DNA of 63,468 bases, counting the filler, from Candidatus Delongbacteria bacterium (lineage in GTDB: Bacteria; UBA4055), in NCBI GenBank assembly GCA_016937995.1. It is 4 parts of 4 records of this genome, joined end to end, with 100 filler letters (N's around TTAATTAATTAA, not from the genome) between each part and the next. Parts side by side here need not be neighbours in the genome. Positions count along the whole stretch, not along the records: positions 1 to 15,497 come from JAFGVM010000093.1; 3 more parts are not named here. The stretch is one strand, 5' to 3'. Position numbers and translations under genes: made by a program. Below the pieces are notes generated by a model that did no database searches, was not told the DNA's origin, and was given only the letters and a program-made list of their open reading frames with translations. The stretch's first letter is position 1; each line of letters opens with the position of its first letter. Of the stretch, positions 673-17,211 are shown piece by piece.

Positions 673-1386
673 CTACTCACTGACAATAGAACCTACTTTA
701 TCTCCCATAATGAACCTCTGAAGATCACCGTTCTTTAACAGATTCACAACTCCTATCTTCAGCTTATTCTCCATACAGAAACTGATGGCAGTAGTATCCA
801 GAACCCTAAGATTCTTATTAAGCACATCAATATACGAAATAGTATCAAATTTCTTAGCATCAGGGTTATTAACAGGATCAGAATCATAAACACCATCAAC
901 TTTAGTCGCTTTAATGATTATCTCAGCTCCGATCTCTCTCGCTCTAAGTACAGCTGCTGTATCGGTTGTAAAGTAAGGATTCCCTGTACCGCCTCCAAAG
1001 ATCACGATACGGCCTTTTTCAAAATGCCTTAAAGCTTTCCTGATAATAATAGGTTCAGCTATTGACTGCATAGGGATTGCACTTTGAATAATAGTTTCAA
1101 TACCTTCAAGTTCAAGTGCGTTCTGAATTGCTATAGAATTAATTATAGTTGCCAGCATACCCATTTGATCAGCCTGAACCCTGTCCATGTTTTTAGCGTG
1201 ATCACTAAGACCTCTGAATATATTACCACCACCAATAACGATACCTATTTCAACTCCAAGACTATATATTTTTTTAACCTGTTGAGCAGTATTCTTAACT
1301 ACTTCAGGATCAATACCATATCCCTGACTCCCTACAAGTGCCTCACCTGACAATTTGAGTAATATCCTCTTATATTTTGCACCCAT
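673..1386 (-). CDS. pyrH: UMP kinase
   Basis: [30 protein letters not shown] motifs; follows tsf; start moved to the ATG after GGAG. Confidence 0.97.
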
Positions 1387-1435
1387 AACCCTCTCCAAAT
1401 TTTATATACATCAATCTAACGATATAAATTAAATT

Positions 1436-1463
1436 AAAAAAAAAGGCTTTTTACAAAGCCTTT
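1436..1463 (-). terminator. intrinsic terminator after tsf
   Basis: AAAGGCTTT-4 nt loop-AAAGCCTTT followed by a T-tract on the minus strand. Confidence 0.7.
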
Positions 1464-1470
1464 CAAATGA

Positions 1471-2316
1471 TTATCCTATCTGGTAACGAACAAATTTTTT
1501 CACAGCGATCTTAGTTCCCGCTTCCTTTGCAACGTTAGCAATAAGTTCTTTTACCTGCATTTTTTCCTTCACATACTCCTGCTCAAGTAAACATACATCG
1601 GCAAGGATCTTACCTTTTCTACCCTCAACGATCATATCTAAAATGTTCTCAGGCTTATTTTTATTCTTAGGATCTTCTTTAAGCATACTCTTAATTAGCT
1701 CTAACTCACTCTTAACAAATTCAGGATCAAGATCTTCTTCAGAAATTGATCTAGGTGCTAAAGAAGCGATCTGAAGAGTAAGATTCTTAGCAAGTTCGTT
1801 GATCTTATCATCATCAGCTTTTGCTTTATCTTCTATTTCAAGATCAAGAACAACACCGACTTTCTTATTTGAATGAATGTAATAAGCTACTTTATCACCA
1901 ACAATTCTTGTATGGTCCATTACAGTAATATTTTCACCAAGTTTAGCTCTGGCTTCGATCAATTCTTCAGTTATCTCTTCACTCTCGATCTTGTCTGCCT
2001 GATCATTAAAAATAAGATCAGAAACTTTCTCACCGAACTCAACAAATTTCTCAGTATTTGTAACCGGTTCAGTTTCACAAGTTAACTGGAGCATTGATAC
2101 TATTTTAGAATCGTCAGACATTTTACAAAAAATTCGACCTTCCTTAGTCTCATTTCCAAGTCTTTTAGCAGCTTTTGCCATCCCTTTTTCTCTAAGGATC
2201 TTTACTGCTTCATCCATATCACCATTTGCTTCTGCAAGTGCTTTTTTACAGTCCATCATTGGAGATCCGGTTGATTTTCTCAGGTCCCCTACCATTTTAG
2301 CTGTTATTTCTGCCAT
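1471..2316 (-). CDS. tsf: elongation factor Ts
   Basis: LRKSTGSPMMDCKKAL, CETE, C-terminal FVRYQIG; follows rpsB. Confidence 0.97.
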   Translation of the reverse strand: MAEITAKMVGDLRKSTGSPMMDCKKALAEANGDMDEAVKILREKGMAKAAKRLGNETKEGRIFCKMSDDSKIVSMLQLTCETEPVTNTEKFVEFGEKVSDLIFNDQADKIESEEITEELIEARAKLGENITVMDHTRIVGDKVAYYIHSNKKVGVVLDLEIEDKAKADDDKINELAKNLTLQIASLAPRSISEEDLDPEFVKSELELIKSMLKEDPKNKNKPENILDMIVEGRKGKILADVCLLEQEYVKEKMQVKELIANVAKEAGTKIAVKKFVRYQIG

Positions 2317-2364
2317 AATTTATCTCCGAAATTTTCTTTTATTAATAATTTTACCTGTTCCTTT

Positions 2365-3219
2365 TTAAGCTGTTGCTTCTGACGGTGTTTCATCTTTATC
2401 ATCTGCAATCTTTTCATCCTTTACATCCCCGTCTTTCTTTACCGGTTTTCTTAAAGGTCTTTTAGGAGCTCTTTTCGTTTCTTCATTCGGAGTTGAACTG
2501 GTCGATTTTTTACCTTCATCCGCTAATTTAATATTTGCCACCTGACTTGCTTCAAGAATTGAATCACTGAAAACCTTAGTGATCAATCCGATAGATTTGA
2601 AAGCATCATCATTTGCAGGAATAATATAATCCAGACCGTCAATGTCTGAATTTGTATCAACAATAGCAAAAATAGGTATATTTAACTTCTTTGCTTCTTT
2701 GATCGCAATTGATTCTTTTTGTGTATCAACCACAAATATCGCATTAGGAATAACTTTCATTGTTCTAACACCTTCAAGAACCTTATGAAGTTTTGCTTTT
2801 GTTTTTTCAATAACAATTATCTCTTTCTTACTTATCTTCTCATAAGTACCGTCAACAGCTTTCTTCTCATACTCTTCAAGAGTTCTGATAGAATTTCTTA
2901 TTGTCTGAAAATTAGTTAAAAATCCACCTAACCATCTTTCAGTTACCCAGTTCATACCACATCTTTGTGCTTCTTCTTTAAGAAGGTCTTTCGCTTGAGC
3001 TTTGGTACCTACAAAAAGTATCTTACCTCTTTTTGAAATGATCTTCATCGCTGCGTTACAAGCTTCTTCGATCTTAAGAACTGTTTTGTTCAGATCGATC
3101 AAGTGAATACCTTTCTTCTTTGTAAAGATGTACTGCTTCATTTTCGGGTTCCATCTTTTAGAAAGATGACCGAAGTGCGATCCTGCTAACAATAGCTGTT
3201 GTGCTGTTACTCTTGGCAT
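2365..3219 (-). CDS. rpsB: 30S ribosomal protein S2
   Basis: AGSHFGH, WNPKM, RWLGGFLTNF, IPANDD; true start ATG 3219 after AAGGAG. Confidence 0.97.
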   Translation of the reverse strand: MPRVTAQQLLLAGSHFGHLSKRWNPKMKQYIFTKKKGIHLIDLNKTVLKIEEACNAAMKIISKRGKILFVGTKAQAKDLLKEEAQRCGMNWVTERWLGGFLTNFQTIRNSIRTLEEYEKKAVDGTYEKISKKEIIVIEKTKAKLHKVLEGVRTMKVIPNAIFVVDTQKESIAIKEAKKLNIPIFAIVDTNSDIDGLDYIIPANDDAFKSIGLITKVFSDSILEASQVANIKLADEGKKSTSSTPNEETKRAPKRPLRKPVKKDGDVKDEKIADDKDETPSEATA

Positions 3220-3350
3220 TGTGTCTCCTTTTAATTTTGGGGTTGTTAACACCTTACGGTGCATCCGTAATCATTTACGGATTATCATGCTTCAATCATC
3301 CCTTTGAAAGCTACACTTACGTGCACCCCTGTCAAAGGTCATGAGCATGT
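3220..3350 (-). ncRNA. rpsB (S2) autoregulatory leader, t44-like
   Basis: GGGGUG in an internal loop (3324-3329) and complementary AACCCC before the SD (3239-3244), within a long CAUGC...GCAUG stem, as in the E. coli rpsB leader. Confidence 0.75.
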
Positions 3351-3361
3351 TTCTATTTATG

Positions 3362-3390
3362 GTAGAGACGCTCCAGTAGAGCGTCTTTAC
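3362..3390. repeat. GTAG-type REP-like palindrome
   Basis: GTAGAGACGCTC-CAGTA-GAGCGTCTTTAC; related copies at 5276, 6290, 47196 and half copies near 668 and 14191. Confidence 0.75.
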
Positions 3391-3541
3391 GGAATTATCT
3401 GATTATTAAGAAGTGTTAAGGGATTGCTTAGTATCAAGTATTTTCAGGAGTAATTTGATTTTTGTGAATGAACTTAGTGACCTAAGTGACATGATTAAAA
3501 ACAAATTACGACACCAAAATACGCAGATAATAAGCGATCGA

Positions 3542-3943
3542 TTAACGCTTCGAGAATTGGAATTTCTTTCTTGCGCCGGCAAGACCATACTTCCTTCTCT
3601 CTTTCTCTCTAGAGTCTCTGGTAAGCATTCCAACTACTTTCAGATTAGATTTAAGATCTTTATCATAAACCGCTAAAGCTCTTGAAATTCCTAAACGGGT
3701 CGCACCTGCCTGACCTGATAATCCGCCGCCTCTAACATTAACAAAAATATCGAATTTACCGATATTACCTGTAATTTCAAGAGGTTGTTCAAGATCCATC
3801 TGAAGTATTTTTTTCTTAAAATATTCTAAGCTGTCAGTATCGTTAACAACGATCTTTCCTGATCCGGGCTTAATCCTTACTCTTGCTGTGGCACTTTTTC
3901 TTCTGCCTACTGCTGTAAAAAATCCTTGAGCGTTTACTTTCAT
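3542..3943 (-). CDS. rpsI: 30S ribosomal protein S9
   Basis: GRRKSATARV, GGGLSGQAGA, C-terminal QFSKR. Confidence 0.98.
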   Translation of the reverse strand: MKVNAQGFFTAVGRRKSATARVRIKPGSGKIVVNDTDSLEYFKKKILQMDLEQPLEITGNIGKFDIFVNVRGGGLSGQAGATRLGISRALAVYDKDLKSNLKVVGMLTRDSREKERRKYGLAGARKKFQFSKR

Positions 3944-3965
3944 TTATATCATTCCTGTATTATTT

Positions 3966-4388
3966 TTATAGTTCCTGGGGTAATTGAGCTGAATGTGGAT
4001 GTTCGTTACCAACGTACACTTTCAATCTTTTCATTCTTCTTGCTCTCATCTTGTTCTTTGGAAGCATTCTGCTTACAGCTTTAGAGATGATCCTTTCAGG
4101 ATGTTTCTCTCTCAGGTCTTCAACTGTCTGCATCCTTCCACCACCAGGATATCCTGTATAGTGAAAATATTCTTTTGCAGTTTCTTTGTTGCCGGTCAGA
4201 AAAACTTTCTCAGCATTTACAACTACAACAAAATCTCCAAGATCAATGTGAGGTGTAAATATCGGCTTTTCTTTTCCGATAAGCTTTACAGCGATCTGAG
4301 TAGCTATTCTACCTAAAGTTTTACCTTCAGCATTTACAACATACCATTTTCGGTCGATATCGGTATGTTTTGCACTATAGGTTTTCAT
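3966..4388 (-). CDS. rplM: 50S ribosomal protein L13
   Basis: RKWYVVNAEGKTLGR, GDFVVVVNAEK, HPHSAQ; start MKTYSAK after GGAG. Confidence 0.98.
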   Translation of the reverse strand: MKTYSAKHTDIDRKWYVVNAEGKTLGRIATQIAVKLIGKEKPIFTPHIDLGDFVVVVNAEKVFLTGNKETAKEYFHYTGYPGGGRMQTVEDLREKHPERIISKAVSRMLPKNKMRARRMKRLKVYVGNEHPHSAQLPQEL

Positions 4389-4515
4389 TTTTTCTCCGTT
4401 TTTTCTATTATTTAAAGTTATTTTCGTCACTGTCATCGTTTATCTGCTTAGATAAACTGCCGGTGTTTCATAGTTAATTTGTGCTTAATAATTAACCGTT
4501 CACGCAGCGCACACA

Positions 4516-6385: not shown

Positions 6386-8521
6386 TTATAATTTGAAGAA
6401 TTCCCAGACTTGACCCTGAGAAGTCCTAGAAAGCAGATCATCCACAAATTCTTTCTTATGAAGATAGGTTGATATTCCTGCTAAAACCCTGATATGCGGG
6501 TCATTCTTTTTTGTTGATGAAACAAGCAATATGATAACCTTTGTAGGCAAACCATCTATAGAGTCAAAATCAATTCCATTTTTTTTAAAACCAACTGCCA
6601 GTTGAACCTGTTCAGTTCCCTCTGTTCTTGCATGTGGTATTGCAAGACCATTCTGCATACCTGTGCTGATAACACTTTCTCTTGCCATCACTTCATTAAA
6701 GATATCATCCTTATTTATGATCTTCCCGTTCTTTTCCAAAAGATCAACTAGCTCTCTGATCACTTCTTCTTTTGTATTTCCTTTAAGGTCCATTTCTATA
6801 CAATTCGGATCCAATATCTTTGTAATATCAATATTTACTCTGGCTTTTTTATCGGGCATTACAGTTTTTCTCAACTCATCTGGATTGGTCATGTCCTTTA
6901 ATTTATCGAGATTATATTTCAATTTCATGAATGATTCATAGATCATTGTTCTTACAAATGACATATCCTCAGCTTTAGTATTGAAAATTATCCTATCTGA
7001 AAATTTATCAAGCCTTACAAAAATATCATCCTTTCTAATATGGTAAATTTCATAATCCAATGTCATTTTGTTGATAAAGAAACCTTCATTGTCGAAATAT
7101 TTTATAATATACGATTCAAAGAACTCAGTTCTTTCGGAATTATCCAAATACAATTCATATGATTCACTTGTCATATCTTTTACTTCTTTTCTAGTTCCGC
7201 GTTTTTTATCTTTCAATACCATATTGAGTAGTGGTGGGGGAATTAATATACTCATAAGGATCATCAGTATTACTATTCCATAGATCTCGGAGTCAATGAA
7301 ATTGTTTGATAGACCAATACCTGCTATAATAAAGCCTACTTCACCTCTGGGGACCATCCCTAAACCGATCCGTAAACTTCCCAGCTTATTAAAACCGGTA
7401 AATAATGCGGGAATACCGCAACCGAATATTTTTCCAAGAATAGCAACAATACCATAAGCAAAACCGATATATAACATTTTACTGTCAATGGCGTTAATAT
7501 TTACCAACATACCCATAACGGTAAAAAATATAGGAACAAAAAATACTTTCAATGGATGGATAGTGTCTTGAATAACATAATTAATATCAGTATTTGATAA
7601 GGTTAATCCCATTACATAGGCACCTATTATCATTGCAAGACCTGCGCTTTCAAATATTCCTGCTAAAAACAATGCAAATCCGAATGATAGAACGGTGAAA
7701 GTATATTTATCTTTAAATATTTTGAGGAACTTACTTATCTTATTCGACAAAAGTAATCCTACCACTGTAAATCCAATCCAAACAATGACAGCTTTGAATG
7801 AGATCACACTTATCTCCACCCAATCAATAGCCCCACCCACCGTAACCACAGTCGAAACACCTAAGATGACAGCCAACAAAATAATACCTAACACATCATC
7901 TATTATAGCTGCTGATAAGATCGTAACACCTTCTGGTGACTCCATATATTTTTTCTTTGATAATATCCTAGCAGTTAACCCGACAGAAGTAGCTGTACTT
8001 ATTACACCGAGAAACAAACATTTTGGATCCAAAAAATGAAGATCGAAAAGATACATTCCTGCTAAAACACCCGGAAAGAAAGTACCAACAAGTCCTCCGA
8101 TCCCAACTATAGAACCGGTAATTGAATATTTTTTTAATAAATTGATGTCCGTTTCCAACCCTGCTATGAATAGTAACATAATGGATGCTATTACAGATAC
8201 TCCATATATCTCCGAACTAATTGGAATTGCTCCATCATTCAAAGGGAAAAAGCCATTCGGGAATCCTAAAAAAGGAAGAGGAATCTTCCCAAGCATATAC
8301 GGACCTATCAATATCCCGGCAGTCAATTCACCCAGTGTAGTAGGTAAATTAAACTTTTCAAATAAAAGTCCGAATCCTCTTGCAGCAAATATTATCAGTC
8401 CAAGATGAAAAACAAAAGAGGTCATTAAATGTATAATGTTATCCTGCTTGGGAACATGCTCCGATGCAAAGATCATTGTTGAAGACAGTAGAACATAGAC
8501 TACAATATTTTTTAAGTTCAT
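6386..8521 (-). CDS. CPA2-type cation:proton antiporter fused to a PTS EIIA-like domain
   Basis: about 13 TM segments, GLETD, AAIIDD, GMVPRGEV; C-terminal RESVISTG..GLAIPHAR with the phospho-His. Confidence 0.9.
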   Translation of the reverse strand: MNLKNIVVYVLLSSTMIFASEHVPKQDNIIHLMTSFVFHLGLIIFAARGFGLLFEKFNLPTTLGELTAGILIGPYMLGKIPLPFLGFPNGFFPLNDGAIPISSEIYGVSVIASIMLLFIAGLETDINLLKKYSITGSIVGIGGLVGTFFPGVLAGMYLFDLHFLDPKCLFLGVISTATSVGLTARILSKKKYMESPEGVTILSAAIIDDVLGIILLAVILGVSTVVTVGGAIDWVEISVISFKAVIVWIGFTVVGLLLSNKISKFLKIFKDKYTFTVLSFGFALFLAGIFESAGLAMIIGAYVMGLTLSNTDINYVIQDTIHPLKVFFVPIFFTVMGMLVNINAIDSKMLYIGFAYGIVAILGKIFGCGIPALFTGFNKLGSLRIGLGMVPRGEVGFIIAGIGLSNNFIDSEIYGIVILMILMSILIPPPLLNMVLKDKKRGTRKEVKDMTSESYELYLDNSERTEFFESYIIKYFDNEGFFINKMTLDYEIYHIRKDDIFVRLDKFSDRIIFNTKAEDMSFVRTMIYESFMKLKYNLDKLKDMTNPDELRKTVMPDKKARVNIDITKILDPNCIEMDLKGNTKEEVIRELVDLLEKNGKIINKDDIFNEVMARESVISTGMQNGLAIPHARTEGTEQVQLAVGFKKNGIDFDSIDGLPTKVIILLVSSTKKNDPHIRVLAGISTYLHKKEFVDDLLSRTSQGQVWEFFKL

Positions 8522-9348
8522 TTAAAATTTTCCAGATTTTTTATGATTATCTTTCCACGGATATAATCATAAAGATAAACATTGTTTTTGTCAATAGCCG
8601 AAGAATAGATATCTGTAGAGGATAAATCTATATCTGTAGTTTTTTTTGAATGCTGTAAAGATACTTCAATTGTAAAAATTGCAAGCTTACCATTTTCGTT
8701 AGTTAAAATGACCGGTCTATCTTCAACTATAGACATATTCCCGTAGTTGTTTTCAGACGGAAGGAATATTTCATTCAACTTATTCAGATCACAGTCAAAT
8801 ATTGCTAAGATTTTGGTAGAGTTATCAATAACATATATTTTTTCAGATGCAACAGATAATGAACTCTGACCGAATTTTGATCCATTGGAATTTGAAGAAC
8901 TTATATTTATTTCGGATATTTTTTTTGATTTAGTGTTGATCGAATAGAGCATTTGACCTTCCTGATTTGACCTGGAAGTGACTATCAGATCATTTCCTAT
9001 CTTCGCAATTTTATCCGGGCTGAATACTTTAAAAGTATCAACAATAGAATTATCTTTTAACTTAAATATTTCATCGTAAGTATTCGAATAGTAAATATCT
9101 TCACCGTCTAAAACAAAATCCAGCACAAAGTCCCTTCCATTTATATCAATATCTGAGACTGTTACTAGAGAATCACCATCTATCTTCTGAATAGATGAAT
9201 TCGTGGAATTTAGAACATACGGTTCATTATCATACAATTTGATCATGTTTATTGCACCATGAGAAGAAGTATCAATGATAATGTCTTCCTGAATTGAACT
9301 GCATGAAACAAGTATGAGTAAAAAAGCGATTAAAAATAGAATTTTCAT
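8518..9348 (-). CDS. hypothetical lipoprotein, beta-rich (possibly a beta-propeller)
   Basis: LVSC lipobox; ATGA overlap with the antiporter gene. Confidence 0.7.
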   Translation of the reverse strand: MKILFLIAFLLILVSCSSIQEDIIIDTSSHGAINMIKLYDNEPYVLNSTNSSIQKIDGDSLVTVSDIDINGRDFVLDFVLDGEDIYYSNTYDEIFKLKDNSIVDTFKVFSPDKIAKIGNDLIVTSRSNQEGQMLYSINTKSKKISEINISSSNSNGSKFGQSSLSVASEKIYVIDNSTKILAIFDCDLNKLNEIFLPSENNYGNMSIVEDRPVILTNENGKLAIFTIEVSLQHSKKTTDIDLSSTDIYSSAIDKNNVYLYDYIRGKIIIKNLENFK

Positions 9349-9368
9349 AATTTATTATTACATTCTTG

Positions 9369-11495
9369 TTATTTCAACAGTAAAAATTTACCGTTCATGG
9401 TCTTATCGGGCATTGCAACCTTGACAAAATAAAGACCTGAAACATACTTGTCAAGCATCAGGTCATATTCATTCGATCCCTTTCTTGCATTACTATACTC
9501 GATCTTCTCGAGAAGATCACCCTTGATACTATAAATAAATATATCCGCTGTACAATTATCCTGAGCAGAAAATGTTATCCTGGTTGCTGGATTTGCAGGA
9601 TTTGGATAAATAGTTAACAGATCTGTGCTTATTGGAGTATTCGCTATGGATGTTGGTGTCTGATCCTCAAAAGCTCCCATGTCAACTTTATTATTAACAA
9701 TTCTTGGATTACCGAGAAGATCGAACTCGGGATGGTTCAAATTAAATTCAGCACCTGCTCCTGCATCCTCACAGACGGAATTATCTAATAGAATCCCTGG
9801 TAAATGTTGAGTATCATCAAATGATGGATCTCTGTCTATATTACCATTATATCTCTCTATTCCTTCAATATTATTGTTATACGTAAAATATTCTTTATTG
9901 TAGTGAATTTGCGAAATTAATCCACCGGGACTGTTCCTGATAATATTGTTCACAAAATATGGTTTTGATCTGAATGTAAATATTGCTCCAGGGACATAAA
10001 GTCCATTAAATTCAGATATATAATTATCAATCGCAGTATTATTATAGAAAAAAGAATAAGAATTAATAAAACAAGCTACAGGTCCATTATAACGGGCATA
10101 ATTTTCATAGAATAGATTATTGTTGATCTTAGCCTGAGTGTTTACTGCTCCTATAGCTGCACCATAATTTGCAGAATTATAACGAAAAATATTATTTTCA
10201 ACTGTCAGTTTGGAAAAATTACTTATAACTAATGCACCTCCATAGTATTTTGTAATATTCCATTCATCATACTCGATCTTCTTTGCATATTCTATAACAC
10301 AATATTTGATCGAAGAACTGTCATTTGTTGAGAGAGTATTGTTGAATAAAATGCCTTTCCAGGATCCATTAACAACAGTAAAATCATCAACCGGATCAGG
10401 TTTTTCTGCTGTGAATACTATTCTTTCATCAGGTGTTCCTTCAGCTATAAGAGTTCCCTGAACATCTAAACAGTAAGGACCGGTAAAATTAAATACTGTT
10501 CCGGGTGAAATATTCAGAGTAATACTATCTTCAACAGTGATATCTCCAGTAACTGAAACAGAGTCAGCTCTTATCACAGTATTCCTGCTTATATTTCCAT
10601 GTAGCTCTACCCTATCACCTTCAATTTGATCGTTATATATTTTCTCCTGCTTAGTTTCTTTCTCTTCCGGAATGTAATACGTTTCGCATCCATAACCGGT
10701 CGCAGGAGAACCATCTTCTAATCTGAAATCAAGATTATCCGGATCTTTCAGCTGAGGATCGATATTCATAATGTTATTAAAAGGTGCCGAACCGGCATCT
10801 GTCCACTCGGATGGTGGAGCTCAACCGTACTCTCAAAGCATAGAGAAGTGTACTAAGGGTTCATCTTCATAACGTTCGTTATAACTCCAATTATCTTGCA
10901 ATAAAGGATAACCATACCATTCAAAAGGAGAGAAGGCATAACTGGTACCTGTACGCAGATAATAAGATGGGATAGAATTGTTGAACGGAAAGTCAATGTC
11001 TGTTGAGATACAATTAACAACTAGATTATTATTCAGGAACATGTCTTTTCCTGCTCCGTCCATTCTGACTCCGTAATCGATCGAATTATAGAATGTAATA
11101 TTCCTGACTGATCCGTAAGGGATGTAATATCCGCCCATTCCGTCAGGTGAGCCGCAGTATCTGAGTGTTCCATTGATTATCACACAGCTGTCAATATCAA
11201 GTATGTTAGGCGTATTCCCGAATTGGATCTGACCATTTTTAAGATCAATGATCGCTCCATTCCCCTTTATTCTAACATTTATTTCGTTTACATAATCATC
11301 ATTAAAAGTAAAAGGATTATTAAAATAACCTAAAAAGAGTCCACCAGTATAAAGTTTTCCTTTTTCCAGAACTACAAGCTTATCATATCCCTCACCGGGA
11401 CCTGATCGGTCAAATGCTTCCTTCAAGGTCATTGATGATATGTTTACGAGCATGATCAGTAATGTTAGTATGAATGATCTCACCAAGACTCCCAT
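9369..11495 (-). CDS. secreted beta-helix protein with a T9SS C-terminal domain; two in-frame TGA codons (candidate selenoprotein, 708 aa)
   Basis: The 220-aa and 466-aa ORFs are in frame and separated only by TGA at 10833-10835 and 10821-10823; the signal peptide is only in the first part and the YPNPANP T9SS tail only in the second. Confidence 0.7.
10782..10818 (-). promoter_or_regulatory. candidate bacterial SECIS hairpins
   Basis: UCCAC-CAUCCGA-GUGGA and AG(A)UGCCG-GUU-CGGCA(C)CU directly 3' of the UGA pair. Confidence 0.45.
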
Positions 11496-11662
11496 TTATT
11501 GTTTTCACATAAAGTAAAATATTATTCAAAAGGAATCAAGTTGAATTAATGGTGTTTTATCCAAACTACCTCCTCTGTGACTCTGTGAGAACAAAATATT
11601 TAATCTTTTGCTTATTATACAGATTTTTCGTAAAATAAACCTAATCCAAAAAAGGGAATTAT

Positions 11663-14194
11663 ATGAAATATTTACTTCTTACATTATTGACAGCTGCTTT
11701 ATTACTTTCAGCAAATGAATATCAAACCTCCAAATACGATACTTTATTTATAAAAGCTTCAGCATCATATCATAATCATCAGAAATATGTAGAACCTGCA
11801 AGATTGCAGATAATCGAACTTGGTGAAGAGATAATGCCGTTCCTTGTTGAGCAGGTTGGCAGCAGACAGCCCAGAGAATATCATGCTATGAGAGATCTTT
11901 TCGGTAGGATCGACAGTAAAAATTCATCCAGGTATTTGATGGATAAGATCAGGCTTATGGACAAGAAGACTTATGGGACAGCAGTGGAATTTCTTGGAAG
12001 ATCAGGTTATAAAAAAGGTCTTGAATTCCTGGCTCCATTTTTACAGGAAGATTCAACCTGGATAAAACTTTCAACTCTGAAAGGAATTGGTGATCTTAAA
12101 GATCCTGCTTCATTAAAATATTTGAGACCTTTTAAAGAAGATAATGATTTTAAAATACGATGGCATACTGCCGCAGCTCTGGGTAAAATAAATACAATTG
12201 AAGCCGACAGAGAACTTGTTTCTATGCTGAATGACAGTTTACAGCTTGTATCCCACACAGCTTTGCACTACCTGGATAATCATTTGAAAAAAGATTCAGT
12301 CGGTATAAGATTCAAAGTTATTTCAAGAACAATGGATTCACCTTTGATCAAGCTGTTACAACAGAAGTACATTGAGAACAAAGTAGTTGATCTTATCTCA
12401 GAGAAAAAGATAGAAACTTCAACTCAGGACACTATTAAACTGATGACAATAAATGATCTTGTTTCTGATAATTCAGTGATATATAATGCTTTAGGGCAAA
12501 TTTATATGGATAAGAATGATTACTTCTTACCAGTGAAGACAGAAAAAGAGTTATTCCTCTTCCCTTCTGTAGCAGAAATGTTCGAAGATCCGATGAAACA
12601 GATATCTGTTCCTGAAAAAACTAAAGATGATTACAAAGATTTCCCAAATATTGATTTTTCAAATCTATCGCAAGAATTCAATGCTTCAACTGAGAATAAT
12701 GAAATAAAAGAAATCGATCTGAATATTTTCACTTACAAAGCTAAAGAAGTTCAGATTATTTTCGATAAGACATGGGAAAAGTATCCTGACATGAAAAAGA
12801 TCATCGATAAGATATCTAATCCTGTAACAGAGGAACGATCTAAAGAAACGGCCGATAAAAGCTCTGATGGACTTGAGGATGATGATATTTCAGTAATGAT
12901 CAGATCAAGGCTAAACGAAAGAAAATATTCTGAAGAAAGTAAAAAATTCTACAAAGAGACTTTAAAAGATATTCAATTACAATATATCATTGAAGCCGGG
13001 ATATCTTCCTACACAGATTTTCTTGGACTGCTTGAGCATTGTAAAAAGAACAAACTTGAAGCAACGACAATGGATACTTCTCTTGGTAGAATCGCTGTTG
13101 GAACTGATGGTGATGATATCTACGAAGGTGAATATTTTCTTATAATTGATCAGGTTGGAAATGACACTTACAAATTAGATAACAGCAAGAACAGATTCAA
13201 CTACATTATTGACCTGAAAGGAAATGACAGGTATATCTCTGCTGAATACGGACCGGCATCAACTTTTAACGGAATTTCATTACTCTATGAAGGTGAAGGT
13301 GATGATATCTATGAATGTACTAATAATTCTTTAGCTTTTGCTGAGTATGGTTTTGCAGTACTGCTTGAAGCAGGTGGAAATGATAAATATCTATCTCTGA
13401 AAAGCTCTCAGGCTTCAGCTTCTTTTGGCTATGCTTGTCTTTGGGATAACGGTGGAAATGACGTATATCTCGGAGAGGAAAAAACTCAGGCATTTGCAGG
13501 AGTAAGCGGATATTCAGTTCTTGTCGATGAGAACGGTAATGACAACTATACATTATCTGGGACACAGGTAGATGTTCTGAGATACAGTGATCACTTTATT
13601 TCAATGGGTCAGGGATTTTCTATAGGCGACAGGGATAATGCTGCCGGCGGAATGGCATTCCTTTTCGATAAACAGGGAAATGATAATTACATCTCTGATA
13701 TATTCGGTCAGGGAGGTGCTTACTGGTTCGCACTCGGAGTTCTCTATGACTTCAAAGGTAACGACAATTATATTTCATACCAATACTCTATAGGTTCCGG
13801 AGTTCACTTAGCTTTTGGCACAGTAATAGATCTTGAAGGTGATGACAGTTATAAATCCAAAGGTGTTTCCATAGGTTGCGGTCATGATTATGCCGGTGGA
13901 ATGTTCTTTGACCTAAAAGGTAATGACAGCTATCAGGCTGAATCCCTTTCAATAGGTGCGGGAAATGCTGATGCAATATCAATTTTCTTTGATGGGCAGG
14001 GTGACGATCTGTACGGAGCTCATCAGGCTAATACAATGGGCTGGTCAGACTGGAGAAGAGATACAGGCTATATAAGTTTATTCATCGAAATGTCAGGTAA
14101 TGATAAATACGGTTCTGCATTCGGAGCAAACAATCAGAAATGGTATCAAGCTACCTGGGGAGTTGGAATGGACTTTGATTTTAAGGTAAGGTAG
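11663..14194 (+). CDS. exported protein with N-terminal HEAT repeats and many DxxG(N/D)DxY repeats
   Basis: signal peptide; RWHTAAALGKI-type HEAT repeats; more than 10 hhhDxxGNDxY units in the C-terminal half. Confidence 0.8.
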   Translation: MKYLLLTLLTAALLLSANEYQTSKYDTLFIKASASYHNHQKYVEPARLQIIELGEEIMPFLVEQVGSRQPREYHAMRDLFGRIDSKNSSRYLMDKIRLMDKKTYGTAVEFLGRSGYKKGLEFLAPFLQEDSTWIKLSTLKGIGDLKDPASLKYLRPFKEDNDFKIRWHTAAALGKINTIEADRELVSMLNDSLQLVSHTALHYLDNHLKKDSVGIRFKVISRTMDSPLIKLLQQKYIENKVVDLISEKKIETSTQDTIKLMTINDLVSDNSVIYNALGQIYMDKNDYFLPVKTEKELFLFPSVAEMFEDPMKQISVPEKTKDDYKDFPNIDFSNLSQEFNASTENNEIKEIDLNIFTYKAKEVQIIFDKTWEKYPDMKKIIDKISNPVTEERSKETADKSSDGLEDDDISVMIRSRLNERKYSEESKKFYKETLKDIQLQYIIEAGISSYTDFLGLLEHCKKNKLEATTMDTSLGRIAVGTDGDDIYEGEYFLIIDQVGNDTYKLDNSKNRFNYIIDLKGNDRYISAEYGPASTFNGISLLYEGEGDDIYECTNNSLAFAEYGFAVLLEAGGNDKYLSLKSSQASASFGYACLWDNGGNDVYLGEEKTQAFAGVSGYSVLVDENGNDNYTLSGTQVDVLRYSDHFISMGQGFSIGDRDNAAGGMAFLFDKQGNDNYISDIFGQGGAYWFALGVLYDFKGNDNYISYQYSIGSGVHLAFGTVIDLEGDDSYKSKGVSIGCGHDYAGGMFFDLKGNDSYQAESLSIGAGNADAISIFFDGQGDDLYGAHQANTMGWSDWRRDTGYISLFIEMSGNDKYGSAFGANNQKWYQATWGVGMDFDFKVR

Positions 14195-14318: not shown

Positions 14319-15437
14319 ATGAAAAAGATTGAATTTGAAGAAATTATTTATAAGGGAATTCCAAGCCTTCAATTAAAATTTAAATATAATACTGTAATTC
14401 TCAATTTGATCAAGAAAATTCCAGGCAGAATATGGGATAATGATTTAAAATGCTGGATTATTCCTAAAACAAACAATTATGATAAGCTATATGAACTTTT
14501 CTCTGACAAAGCAGAATTAATTTTTGAAGAAAAGAATGAAATTGAGATAAATAAACCAGAAACTAACAAAACGGAATTTTATACTTCAAATGGTGTGGAT
14601 ATCCCATTTGATTACATAAAATTGCTCGAAATTAAAAGATATGCAGCACCAACAAAAAAGACATATATCGCTAATTTTAAAAGATTTGTAAACTACTATA
14701 AGAATATTGATCCCTTGAATATCACTAAAGATCAGATTAGGGATTATATGCTTTTTTTGATCGAAAAAAGAAATTTATCAGCATCAGCGCAAAATCAAGC
14801 TATCAATGCTATTAAATTTTATTATGAAAAAGTTCTAAATCAAAAAAGAGAAGTATATCGGATAGAAAGACCACGTAAGGCAAAGAAATTACCTGTTGTG
14901 TTAAGCATTGAAGAAATAACTGAAATATTAAAATCAATAAAGAACTTAAAGCACAAATGCATAATTTATACAATTTATTCTGCCGGATTAAGACTTGGAG
15001 AAGTAATAACACTGAAAATCAAAGACATCGACTATGACAGGAAGCAGATATTCATTCAGTCTGCCAAAGGCAATAAAGATCGATACACTCTTCTATCAGA
15101 TACTATTGTAAGTCTTTTACAAAAATATTTTGCTGAATATAAACCTAAAGAATATGTGTTTGAAGGTCAAAAAGGTGGACAGTATAGCAGAAAAAGTGTG
15201 CAGAATATATTAAAAAATGCTTTAAAAAACACTAACATAAAAAAACCAGCTTCTATTCACACTCTAAGACATAGCTTTGCAACCCATCTTCTTGAAGATG
15301 GTACAGATTTAAGATATATCCAGGAATTGCTGGGACATCAAAGTATGAAGACTACTCAGATATATACTCATATTACAAAGAAAGGATTCGATAAAATAAA
15401 GAGTCCACTAGACAATATAAAATTCGATGAAGAATAG
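14319..15437 (+). CDS. tyrosine recombinase/integrase with an N-terminal SAM-like domain
   Basis: GLR, KGNKDR, HTLRHSFATHL, LLGH, TTQIY catalytic set; SASAQNQAINAIKF. Confidence 0.93.
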   Translation: MKKIEFEEIIYKGIPSLQLKFKYNTVILNLIKKIPGRIWDNDLKCWIIPKTNNYDKLYELFSDKAELIFEEKNEIEINKPETNKTEFYTSNGVDIPFDYIKLLEIKRYAAPTKKTYIANFKRFVNYYKNIDPLNITKDQIRDYMLFLIEKRNLSASAQNQAINAIKFYYEKVLNQKREVYRIERPRKAKKLPVVLSIEEITEILKSIKNLKHKCIIYTIYSAGLRLGEVITLKIKDIDYDRKQIFIQSAKGNKDRYTLLSDTIVSLLQKYFAEYKPKEYVFEGQKGGQYSRKSVQNILKNALKNTNIKKPASIHTLRHSFATHLLEDGTDLRYIQELLGHQSMKTTQIYTHITKKGFDKIKSPLDNIKFDEE

Positions 15438-15678: not shown

Positions 15679-17211
15679 CTATTTAACCAATAACATTTTC
15701 TTTGTCTCAGAAATACCATCACATTCTAATTTATAAAAATATATCCCACTATTCAGTTCATTCGCATTGAATTTGATCTTATGAAGACCTTTATCAAGTT
15801 TCCTGTTAACAAGATCAGAAACCAGCTGACCGGAAAGGTTATATACAGACAACTTAACATCCTGAGTTTTATCAATTGAAAAAGTTATCTCTGTTACTGG
15901 ATTGAACGGATTCGGGTAATTCTGATATAACTCATAATTATTAATTATTAATTGTTCATTATTAATTGAAGTAGAAACTCCGCCTTTGAAAGTTATATCA
16001 TCAACCCATGCACAATCATCACCTTCATCTCCGGAATTGTTTTTTTCATAGATCCATTTAAAAGTATGTGTTCCTGCAGGAACCGGTATTGTCGATTTTC
16101 TCCATGATGACAGACCACTGTTCTGCAGTTTCTCATACCTGTTAATATAAAATTTCAAGTAGTCAGCACCTGTTTCAGAAGAAACTTTATGCCAGAAAGA
16201 TATTTCACCGTCAGTCTCATAATTCATCTCAACTGTTATTTCTGCAGTTTGATTATACCCGATATCAGAAGACTTTATACAGTAAGTGCCTTCATAAGAA
16301 TTATCTGTATCGATTGCCCATCCTGCATCACCTCCGAACTGCCATGGATATTTTATAAGGTCACCTGTTTCAAAACCCTCGATATTGTATTCTGAAGGAT
16401 CATAACCAGTAACATCAAATTGAAATGTTTCATAAAATGCACCAGATTCACCCTTCAAAGTTATCGTTGATGTACCTGTTGAAATTGTATCCCCTGTCTG
16501 TAGAAATAAACTATTTTCCATCAGTTCTGCAAATACTACAGTTGGATCACTGTTGTTCTCTAGTGATACTACAACACTGCTACTGTCTCTAGCTGCAAAA
16601 AGATTTGAAACATCTATTTCGATAAATTCTTGCTTTTCAATAATTTTATTACTGATATAATTCTGTAAGTACACACCTTCAGCAGGAGGAGAATAAACGA
16701 CCCTGATACTATCAATTGTAACCGGAACTACAGGTCTGTCATCAATAGTAGGCACATAACTTATACTATATACAACATCCAATCCTTCAATGACCTTTCC
16801 GAAAACAGAATAATGATCATTAAGATGTGGATAAGACTCTACTGTAATAAAATACTGAGAACCACCTGTATCAGGTCCGGCATTTGCCATTGATAATACA
16901 CCTGGAGCATTATGATTCAGATCCGGATGAAATTCATCTGGAATAGTATAACCCGGACCACCTGTACCGTCACCTAAGGGGTCACCATCCTGTATCATAA
17001 AACTTTGTATAACTCTGTGAAAGATCAAATCATCATAAAATTTTGCATTGGTCAGATCTATAAAATTATTCGCAGTGATCGGAACATGATCCTCCCTCAG
17101 CTGAGCTTTAAAATTACCCTTTGAAGTGTACCATTGTACGATCGTTTGAGACACAGTGATCGAACTGAGCAATAAAATTGATACAAATAATATTTTGAAT
17201 TTTGACAACAT
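15679..17211 (-). CDS. cyclophilin-type peptidyl-prolyl isomerase with extra beta domains and a T9SS C-terminal domain
   Basis: signal peptide; FHRVIQSFMIQDGDP, LSMANAGPDTGGSQYFIT; tail QNYPNPFNP...KKMLLVK. Confidence 0.92.
   Translation of the reverse strand: MLSKFKILFVSILLLSSITVSQTIVQWYTSKGNFKAQLREDHVPITANNFIDLTNAKFYDDLIFHRVIQSFMIQDGDPLGDGTGGPGYTIPDEFHPDLNHNAPGVLSMANAGPDTGGSQYFITVESYPHLNDHYSVFGKVIEGLDVVYSISYVPTIDDRPVVPVTIDSIRVVYSPPAEGVYLQNYISNKIIEKQEFIEIDVSNLFAARDSSSVVVSLENNSDPTVVFAELMENSLFLQTGDTISTGTSTITLKGESGAFYETFQFDVTGYDPSEYNIEGFETGDLIKYPWQFGGDAGWAIDTDNSYEGTYCIKSSDIGYNQTAEITVEMNYETDGEISFWHKVSSETGADYLKFYINRYEKLQNSGLSSWRKSTIPVPAGTHTFKWIYEKNNSGDEGDDCAWVDDITFKGGVSTSINNEQLIINNYELYQNYPNPFNPVTEITFSIDKTQDVKLSVYNLSGQLVSDLVNRKLDKGLHKIKFNANELNSGIYFYKLECDGISETKKMLLVK

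Follow-up and report, generated by a model that had tools for sequence, protein, structure and literature searches.

A candidate double-selenocysteine beta-helix protein family with a type IX sorting domain in Delongbacteria and Cloacimonadota

Introduction

Do two TGA codons separated by three sense codons close one gene ahead of another, or are both decoded as selenocysteine (Sec, U) within a single longer gene? This question is raised by positions 9369-11495, on the minus strand, of a 63,468-nucleotide stretch of DNA from Candidatus Delongbacteria bacterium (GenBank assembly GCA_016937995.1; the whole stretch is hereafter called the window), where two open reading frames (ORFs) of 220 and 466 amino acids (aa) are annotated. 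The original prediction, made from the sequence of the window, was that the two ORFs form one secreted protein with Sec at residues 221 and 225 and a type IX secretion system (T9SS) sorting tail. After following up this prediction, we conclude with a probability of about 85% that the locus is one gene for a 708-residue protein, in which both UGAs encode Sec by means of SelB and a selenocysteine insertion sequence (SECIS) hairpin. The TGAs are conserved among homologues, Sec and cysteine (Cys) are exchanged at the junction, a downstream hairpin covaries, the Sec machinery is present in relatives, and a single fold is predicted for the fused chain. The family, which spans two phyla without cultured members, is real and new, and it is routinely mis-annotated as two genes.

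Gene Layout and Reading Frame

ORF1 (10833-11495, minus strand, 220 aa) ends with TGA and ORF2 occupies 9369-10769 on the same strand (466 aa); their starts are 726 nt apart, so that they share a common frame. When TGA is translated as U, the region 9369-11495 gives 708 residues followed by a TAA stop codon (9371-9369), and two codons fall outside genetic code table 11, namely U221 (10835-10833, UGA1) and U225 (10823-10821, UGA2). The junction peptide is HFSML-U-EYG-U-APPSEWTDAGSAPFNNI-MNIDPQL, and in its wider context it reads LVHFSML-U-EYG-U-APPSEWTDAGSAPFNNIMNIDPQL, in which the part after U225 starts with APPSEW. Re-reading of the region bore out the claim that the two halves share a frame and that the two TGAs are the only stops in the bridge. 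The ATG at the start of ORF2 has no purine-rich Shine-Dalgarno sequence upstream, as had also been noted, which is weak evidence taken alone; in addition, this ATG is not conserved and is replaced by a codon for T or I in homologues.

The window has a G+C content of 34%, with dense coding and a normal gene density under table 11. Since 6 of the 49 other ORFs with a length of 150 aa or more terminate in TGA, the window DNA shows no genome-wide reassignment of TGA of the kind found in codes 4 or 25. The window contains 264 N letters in total, and the region 9200-11700 is free of them.

Conservation of the TGA Pair and Exchange with Cysteine

A word-indexed protein search with the fused 708-aa query returned 66 proteins. 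The 12 closest, with identities of 38-60% and lengths of 392-481 aa, are all C-terminal pieces that correspond to 56-68% of the query, and three of them start directly after the second TGA; the homologues are thus cut at the same junction in the database. The corresponding DNA was found in a metagenome-assembled genome (MAG) of Delongbacteria, whose locus (L001) reads NFSRL-U-EYG-U-AGPYTW and shows 55% identity over residues 23-708. A metagenome scan was also performed with a query taken just downstream of the junction, which made it blind to the junction itself. It returned eight loci, two of which (L103 and L104) were left out as unrelated weak matches; in all six family loci, the pattern L-TGA-GAG-TAC-GGN-TGA is present within a 703-codon frame, and one of them (L102) is identical to L001 at the junction. 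The same pattern is found in L001 and in further Delongbacteria genomes at protein identities of 46-66%, and UGA1 is a TGA in 7 of 7 aligned Delongbacteria-type sequences. The bridge is in frame and among the best-conserved segments of the protein (NWSYN…FS.L-U-EYG-U-..P..W.DAGSAP.NNI…DP…DP…DFRL…SPA.GYGCET), so that coding conservation extends on both sides of a TGA pair conserved among orthologues.

When 1.84 billion representatives were scored with a profile built on the first 330 residues, 226 proteins matched at E ≤0.001. Among 147 of the 150 best of these matches, 13 N-terminal pieces end with C[ED]xG followed by a stop, about 10 others (counted by eye) stop just short of position 1, that is, the residue corresponding to U221, many C-terminal pieces begin directly after position 2, and a few proteins cross the junction. 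One that does is P0069, which reads ALCEYGC and whose cluster includes a Cloacimonadota protein (MDN5353429.1) called under table 11; the matching DNA locus (L122) has TGT…TGC at the two positions and therefore encodes a CxxxC motif.

Two phyla were then compared at the DNA level. In the phylum of L001 (Delongbacteria), the family occurs in 8 of 15 genomes with 11 loci that span the junction: seven carry UxxxU, one carries UxU (VPEUGU, L110), two carry CxxxU (L115 and L116), and one is without TGA (QCCESCG, L117), which leaves TGA at position 2 in 10 of the 11. In Cloacimonadota, the family occurs in 56 of 232 genomes (E ≤1e-20). Thirty-one loci were examined there, of which one (L121) is not a family member and 30 gave the junction: CxxxU in 27 (LCEYGU), UxxxU in two (L137 and L145), and CxxxC in one (L122, LCEYGC). 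Position 1 is accordingly Cys (TGT or TGC) in 28 of the 30, and position 2 is TGA in 29 and Cys in L122. This pattern indicates that position 225 is a near-universal Sec and that position 221 alternates between Sec and Cys. Cys is thus aligned to UGA in homologues at both positions, and such an exchange, as read from aligned loci, is behaviour typical of selenoproteins. The homologue comparison proposed in the original prediction, as to whether TGA is kept or swapped for Cys with an in-frame bridge conserved around it, has therefore turned out in favour of two Sec residues at 221 and 225.

These data also bear on the opposite explanation, in which the locus consists of two separate genes or of a decaying pseudogene with two nonsense mutations. 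It agrees with the treatment of the family by gene callers and public databases, whose pieces end and start at the junction, just as had been foreseen for an unusual family that annotation splits in two. It is nevertheless hardly credible, as the same TGA pair is kept at 46-66% protein identity across two phyla, which speaks against a chance pair of nonsense mutations, earlier judged less parsimonious, and as the bridge ranks among the best-conserved segments while the internal ATG does not persist.

Two further variants of the motif were observed. The UxU locus L110 (genome G003) is a Delongbacteria paralogue that reads ALVPE-U-G-U-TVP, with the TGAs one codon apart and the first TGA shifted by two residues. 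Moreover, a distant group of N-terminal pieces of 170-250 aa (for example, P0111, P0114, P0116, P0118, P0124, P0149, P0163, P0170, P0171, P0191, P0199, and P0211) ends with CG, CPG, or CSG before the stop, which suggests, from the protein ends, that further subfamilies with C-G-U or C-x-G-U motifs may exist.

A SECIS-like Hairpin in the Coding Sequence

The SECIS-like hairpin GAUGCCG-GUU-CGGCACC lies at 10783-10799 (minus strand), where it encodes D233-A-G-S-A-P238, and its G-U-U loop (10792-10790) begins 28 nt downstream of UGA2 and 40 nt downstream of UGA1. The 17-nt stretch (GATGCCGGTTCGGCACC), which folds as UGCCG-GUU-CGGCA, is identical in 7 of 7 sequences that differ at most synonymous sites. 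In a codon-level count over the seven aligned sequences, 241 columns have an invariant amino acid with degenerate codons and 26 are invariant in the codon itself; the latter set includes both TGAs, E222 (GAG), Y223 (TAC), and the run D233-A234-G235-S236-A237; elsewhere in the gene, T306 alone has a four- or six-fold degenerate codon that is likewise frozen. The free energy calculated for the window hairpin is -6.8 kcal/mol, with p=0.015 in a synonymous-codon shuffle.

Across loci, the 17-nt stretch is identical in 11 of 16, and the other five covary in the stem. Variants of the hairpin are UGCCA-GUU-UGGCA in L107, where the peptide changes from DAGSAP to DASLAP and the stem is kept, AGCCG-GUU-CGGCU in L110 and L111, UGCCG-GUU-CGGUA in L113, AGCAA-GUC-UUGCU in L116, and, at 20 nt and made from other codons, GUGGCA-GUC-UGCCAC in L115. 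Of the cells in the alignment of 16 sequences (13 distinct), 92.3% are paired, and changes on both sides are seen for 6 of the 7 pairs; none of 500 shuffles was as good, and controls slid along the sequence pair at 27-45%.

The family is not confined to one hairpin. The CxxxU loci L130, L132, and L133 have the same DAGSAP-type hairpin at 28 nt, which indicates that the hairpin serves UGA2. Most Cloacimonadota loci have a different covarying hairpin, …GGUC-AGUUG-GGCU…, which encodes the peptide VSWA at about 18-19 nt after the UGA. Unlike hairpins at one constant place are the look of bacterial SECIS (bSECIS) elements. The idea that the SECIS-encoded peptide is lost in the Cys/Cys homologue could be rejected, as L122 keeps the GGUC-AGUUG-GGCU hairpin and its VSWA peptide.

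A 2026 review of prokaryotic selenoproteins (PMC13188914) gives the bSECIS pattern as N1-G-[G|U]-N-N2 and quotes a distance of 16-37 nt for most bSECIS elements. The loop of the window hairpin with its closing pair, G-G-U-U-C, agrees with this pattern, and for UGA2 the hairpin follows at the usual distance and has its G within the first two positions of the loop. It thus resembles a canonical bSECIS in its small G+C-rich stem, its 3-nt loop (5 nt with the closing G-C pair) with G followed by U, its position 28 nt after UGA2, and its location within the coding sequence.

A weaker and variable hairpin, UCCAC-CAUCCGA-GUGGA, is located at 10802-10818 (minus strand), between UGA2 and the SECIS-like hairpin, and its role is uncertain. 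A hairpin at this place is predicted in 15 of 16 TGA-bearing loci (not in L115), with shifting registers and no conserved loop. As a SECIS for UGA1 it finds no support in view of these registers and loops, of a synonymous shuffle that gave p=0.077, and of its occurrence in CxxxU loci too. That it could act as an accordion spacer, equalising the distances of both UGAs to the SECIS, is pure speculation.

Selenocysteine Machinery in Relatives

The genome of L001 (G001) contains selA (472 bits), selB (364 bits, above the cut-off), and selD (356 bits), together with a tRNA-Sec that is detected by Rfam at 56 bits, above the gathering score of 47, and that has the anticodon loop CUUCAAA. Of the 15 genomes in the phylum of L001, 14 have selA and 12 have selB above the cut-off. 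In Cloacimonadota, selA was found in 106 of 232 genomes, and in our own comparison of two tables, it is present in 50 of 56 family-positive genomes versus 56 of 176 others. Among the six family-positive Cloacimonadota genomes in which no selA was detected, five (all but G187) were tested; selB scored above the cut-off in all five, and four have selD. Genomes with the TGA pair, in G001 and in both phyla, therefore do carry Sec machinery, as the original prediction demanded. The family and the Sec trait share clades, which agrees with the Sec reading and is not independent proof of it.

The selD gene of G001 (L096, G001:C4) itself has an in-frame TGA, …HVQAAG-U-AGKVSPEDL…, and a hairpin, CCGGA-AAAGUAAG-UCCGG, begins 1 nt after it. 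This hairpin is unlike that of the family, and no common SECIS sequence could be demonstrated between selD and the family gene.

Points Against the Selenocysteine Reading and Alternative Decoding

Several findings weigh against the reading of both UGAs as Sec or reduce the force of its support. First, the hairpin departs from canonical bSECIS elements as summarised in PMC13188914: it would have to serve UGA1 as well, at 40 nt and hence outside the usual range, and in the other UxxxU loci the distance from UGA1 to the loop is 30-43 nt, most of these values being beyond the usual range; the hairpin alone, at its calculated energy, is weaker than the model threshold of -7.5 kcal/mol; and an Rfam search of 10700-10880 at E up to 10 gave no SECIS family and only a chance snoRNA match. 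The intervening hairpin, which lacks a conserved G-containing loop and is not significant, offers no remedy for UGA1. Second, the covariation count is favourable to the structure, as the hairpin was picked by eye in each locus before the pairs were counted, that of L115 being placed elsewhere than in the other loci; the sequences are also mutually related, so that the shuffle control is not a probability. Third, the evidence on the Sec machinery comes from the genomes of relatives rather than from that of the window organism, and the machinery is near-universal in these clades, so that co-occurrence discriminates weakly; ARAGORN found no tRNA in the window, and it also missed the tRNA-Sec of G001 seen by Rfam. 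Fourth, reads across the junction, which the original prediction had wished to see checked, cover UGA1-UGA2 without a variant in a single run, which is probably the one that gave rise to the source assembly. Finally, tryptophan (Trp, W) stands at both positions in some homologues, for which an artefact has been confirmed in one cluster only, and the function proposed below is argued by analogy alone.

The spacing is a weak point of canonical decoding at UGA1 but leaves the reading of UGA2 as Sec untouched, and it gives room to an explanation in which Sec insertion is efficient only at UGA2. UGA1 would then mostly cause termination or a pause, yielding a 220-residue secreted fragment, and the full-length protein would be made when selenium and SelB are plentiful, which amounts to a selenium-dependent gate. 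That UGA1 and the hairpin loop are 38-43 nt apart, more than the usual 16-37 nt, speaks for such a gate, as does Cys at position 1 in 27 of 30 Cloacimonadota loci (as counted for this explanation), by which Sec there would be dispensable for function. We consider the gate improbable, however, as UGA1 is kept in all seven aligned Delongbacteria-type sequences and in the independent Cloacimonadota lineages L137 and L145, as the table of PMC13188914 includes bacterial families in which two Sec residues likewise lie near each other (UxxU and UxxxxU), and as the 220-aa fragment would contain neither the conserved motif nor the sorting tail.

A second explanation dispenses with selenium altogether and assumes that near-cognate decoding, a suppressor tRNA, or a locally altered code allows the TGAs to be read through as Trp, Cys, or Gly. 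W stands at the two positions in four junction-spanning database proteins (P0070, P0074, P0083, and P0088), and a single base separates TGA from TGG. However, P0218, which belongs to the P0070 cluster and is identical to P0070 over the shared part including FLWEYGW, runs past the usual …ILIK end of the family as W EKKIIS, that is, through the true stop, which shows that it was called under code 4 and that its W is TGA. The W in database homologues thus looks like a code-4 gene-calling artefact, which is confirmed for the P0070/P0218 cluster only. Given also that TGA ends other long ORFs of the window, that the exchange at the DNA level is with Cys and not Trp, and that a covarying SECIS-like hairpin is accompanied by a full Sec machinery in relatives, selenium-free read-through appears highly improbable. 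Public catalogues carry versions of the family with TGA translated as Trp, apparently a gene-calling artefact on low-G+C contigs that masks the Sec codons.

Protein Architecture and Predicted Fold

The fused protein is divided into four regions. A putative N-terminal signal peptide covers residues ~1-21 (MGVLVRSFILTLLIMLVNISS; 11433-11495, minus strand); it was judged by eye and is modelled as a helix at residues 6-18 with a predicted local distance difference test (pLDDT) score of ~41. Beta-helix domain 1 covers residues ~22-275 (10671-11432, minus strand), carries the [C/U]xxxU motif close to its C-terminus, and has IDPQLKDPDNLDFRLEDGSPATGYGC (residues 245-270) as its closing element. Beta-helix domain 2 covers residues ~289-612 (9660-10631, minus strand), as judged from the strand pattern of the model and from PF13229 (Beta_helix) in homologues. 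The T9SS type A C-terminal sorting domain covers residues 629-708 (9372-9611, minus strand) and is recognised by PF18962 at residues 629-699 (37.5 bits against a cut-off of 27, 2.9e-09), by TIGR04183 (28.8 bits against 23), and by structural matches to the T9SS C-terminal domains 8qb1_A and 8glk_D. As these scores exceed the family cut-offs, the protein has the mark of a T9SS type A cargo. With Pfam and NCBIfam, the sorting domain alone scored above its cut-off in the fused protein; the Pfam Beta_helix was not detected in the window protein, and the choice-of-anchor Q model NF041518 reached 24.0 bits at residues 569-611 against a cut-off of 25.

The fused 708 residues were modelled by AlphaFold2 from 33 aligned sequences with a mean pLDDT of 89.1 and a predicted template modelling (pTM) score of 0.80, and residues 210-240, which surround the two UGAs, have pLDDT values of 85-93. 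A model of residues 21-290 alone (38 sequences) reached a pLDDT of 92.7 and a pTM of 0.89. Domain 1 is modelled as a generic right-handed parallel beta-helix that superposes on solved beta-helix proteins: its best VIA-align match is 7dmk_A (Z 14.3, root-mean-square deviation 3.2, 190 residues), and many matches to lyases, hydrolases, and tailspikes follow at Z 10-12. Foldseek against the Protein Data Bank (PDB) gave generic beta-helix matches only, and a profile search against PDB sequences gave no real relative, the best match (9rx2_A, E 2.5e-4) lying over the 32-residue closing motif. With its predicted beta-helix and three-residue spacer, the protein does not belong to the thioredoxin-fold class with CxxU/UxxC motifs.

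This architecture returns us to the notion of two separate genes or a pseudogene, against which it speaks in two ways: part 2 has no signal peptide and part 1 has no sorting tail, as the original prediction had observed and as the hydrophobic N-terminus and the PF18962 match now show, and the fused chain is modelled with confidence as one fold. The remaining claim, that the DPxF…SP motif closes a beta-helix module rather than opening a protein, has also held. The closing motif of domain 1, DP..DP.N.DFRL...SP, recurs at residues 556-575, and short family members of ~320-376 aa (L111, L116, L117, P0074, P0083, and P0088) have, apart from domain 1 and its junction motif, only the sorting tail. 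It follows from these short members that the functional unit is domain 1 together with its [C/U]xxxU loop.

A different architecture was seen in P0085 (P0221), where a signal of the lipoprotein type stands at the front, domain 1 is preceded by two fused rhodanese domains (PF00581, 79.7 bits), and the protein ends at the first TGA. A link of this exported rhodanese fusion to sulfur or selenium transfer is possible.

Comparison with Known Selenoproteins and Beta-Helix Proteins

Table 1 of PMC13188914 comprises 119 prokaryotic selenoprotein families or subfamilies. Neither this table nor searches of the text gave a beta-helix or a T9SS sorting domain, and the table gives no UxxxU family and no selenoprotein with a beta-helix fold. 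No NCBIfam selenoprotein model matches the fused protein, and literature searches turned up no publication describing a UxxxU selenoprotein with a beta-helix or T9SS export, though supplements may list more selenoproteins. The family is unusual in its beta-helix fold, surface location, CxxxU/UxxxU motif, long UGA1-SECIS spacing, and systematic mis-annotation.

Two nearby UGAs in one bacterial gene have precedent, as the same table lists a Prx-like thiol:disulfide oxidoreductase, the metal-binding NF041115, and an FmdB-family protein (all UxxU), as well as the rhodanese/DsbD fusion-like TsoB NF045694 (UxxxxU). These families are similar to the window family in having two UGAs a few codons apart, interchangeable with Cys, presumably one in-frame SECIS, and a likely redox or metal role; they differ in being thioredoxin-like or small metal-binding proteins, whereas the window family has UxxxU/CxxxU motifs, a predicted right-handed beta-helix, and T9SS export. 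The table also lists outer-membrane selenoproteins, namely a TonB-dependent receptor of the FCYXU type (NF049945) and the outer-membrane beta-barrel GSU2204. They too have Sec in proteins that leave the cytoplasm, but their folds and motifs (CxxU/UxxC) are unrelated and they lack domain 1 and the L[C/U]EYGU loop. The predicted fold of domain 1 is shared with beta-helix proteins such as the PL6 alginate lyase BcAlyPL6 (7dmk_A), pectate lyases, phage tailspike depolymerases, and NosD (7o0y_A, Z 11.2 to the domain 1 model); identity to these is only 9-17%, and likeness of fold shows no function.

Proposed Mechanism and Function

In the proposed mechanism, a system of SelA, SelB, SelD, and tRNA-Sec would decode UGA 221 and UGA 225 as Sec. 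The hairpin UGCCG-GUU-CGGCA inside the coding sequence would act as a bacterial SECIS that recruits SelB, and SelB·GTP·Sec-tRNA-Sec on the hairpin would insert Sec at 225 and 221, so that one hairpin would serve both UGAs. The protein would then cross the inner membrane by the Sec export pathway and the outer membrane by the T9SS and would finally be anchored on the cell surface. As relatives have C-x-x-x-U, position 225 could be the essential selenium and position 221 its resolving partner. The U-E-Y-G-U loop, which lies where domain 1 ends, may undergo selenol/diselenide cycling, with a selenenylsulfide in the CxxxU relatives; alternatively, the pair may bind a soft metal or chalcogen. These anaerobes would thereby gain, at their surface, a polysaccharide-lyase-like scaffold with a site for redox reactions or capture. 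Our confidence in the proposed surface redox or metal/chalcogen chemistry is low.

A bolder version of this proposal is that domain 1 represents the first case of a pectate-lyase-type beta-helix with an active site that depends on selenium, forming a surface diselenide/selenenylsulfide centre for extracellular chalcogen, thiol, or metal chemistry in strictly anaerobic Delongbacteria and Cloacimonadota, with one SECIS decoding UGAs at 28 and 40 nt. We regard this as tentative and on balance unlikely; candidate chemistries for such a site are the handling of polysulfide or elemental sulfur and the capture of selenium or soft metals.

Among the species genomes searched, 56 of 232 from Cloacimonadota and 8 of 15 from Delongbacteria are positive. 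A widespread uncatalogued selenoprotein family is thereby added, whose members are currently annotated as two hypothetical genes or mistranslated with Trp under code-4 calling. Cloacimonadota are key syntrophs of anaerobic digesters, and a surface selenoprotein in them therefore bears on trace-element needs. The UxxxU members with one covarying SECIS at 28 and 40 nt also offer a natural system for studying the spacing limits of SelB and the re-use of a SECIS; if one SECIS does decode both UGAs, the gene would be a natural test of how far SelB reaches.

Genomic Neighborhood

No conserved functional partner was found in the neighborhoods compared, which were those of six Cloacimonadota loci, L001, and the window. 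The housekeeping cluster rplM-rpsI-rpsB-tsf-pyrH is nearby in three of these neighborhoods. In the window, it occupies 673-4436 (minus strand), ~5 kb from the selenoprotein gene; in the Cloacimonadota locus L154, the same five genes are about as far from the family gene, and in L153, also from Cloacimonadota, tsf and pyrH only were seen, near the start of the stretch examined. The shared position of the cluster hints at an old, vertically inherited location of the family gene.

Other genes of the window include an Na+/H+ exchanger (PF00999) fused to an EIIA-2 domain of the phosphotransferase system (PF00359) at 6386-8521 (minus strand) and a tyrosine recombinase/integrase (PF00589 and PF13495) at 14319-15437 (plus strand), ~3 kb upstream of the selenoprotein gene and adjacent to the gene for an 843-aa HEAT-repeat protein at 11663-14194. 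A second protein with a T9SS sorting domain is encoded at 15679-17211 (minus strand), where a cyclophilin-type peptidyl-prolyl isomerase is fused to it (PF00160 and PF18962); judging by these domains, the product would be a secreted or surface isomerase.

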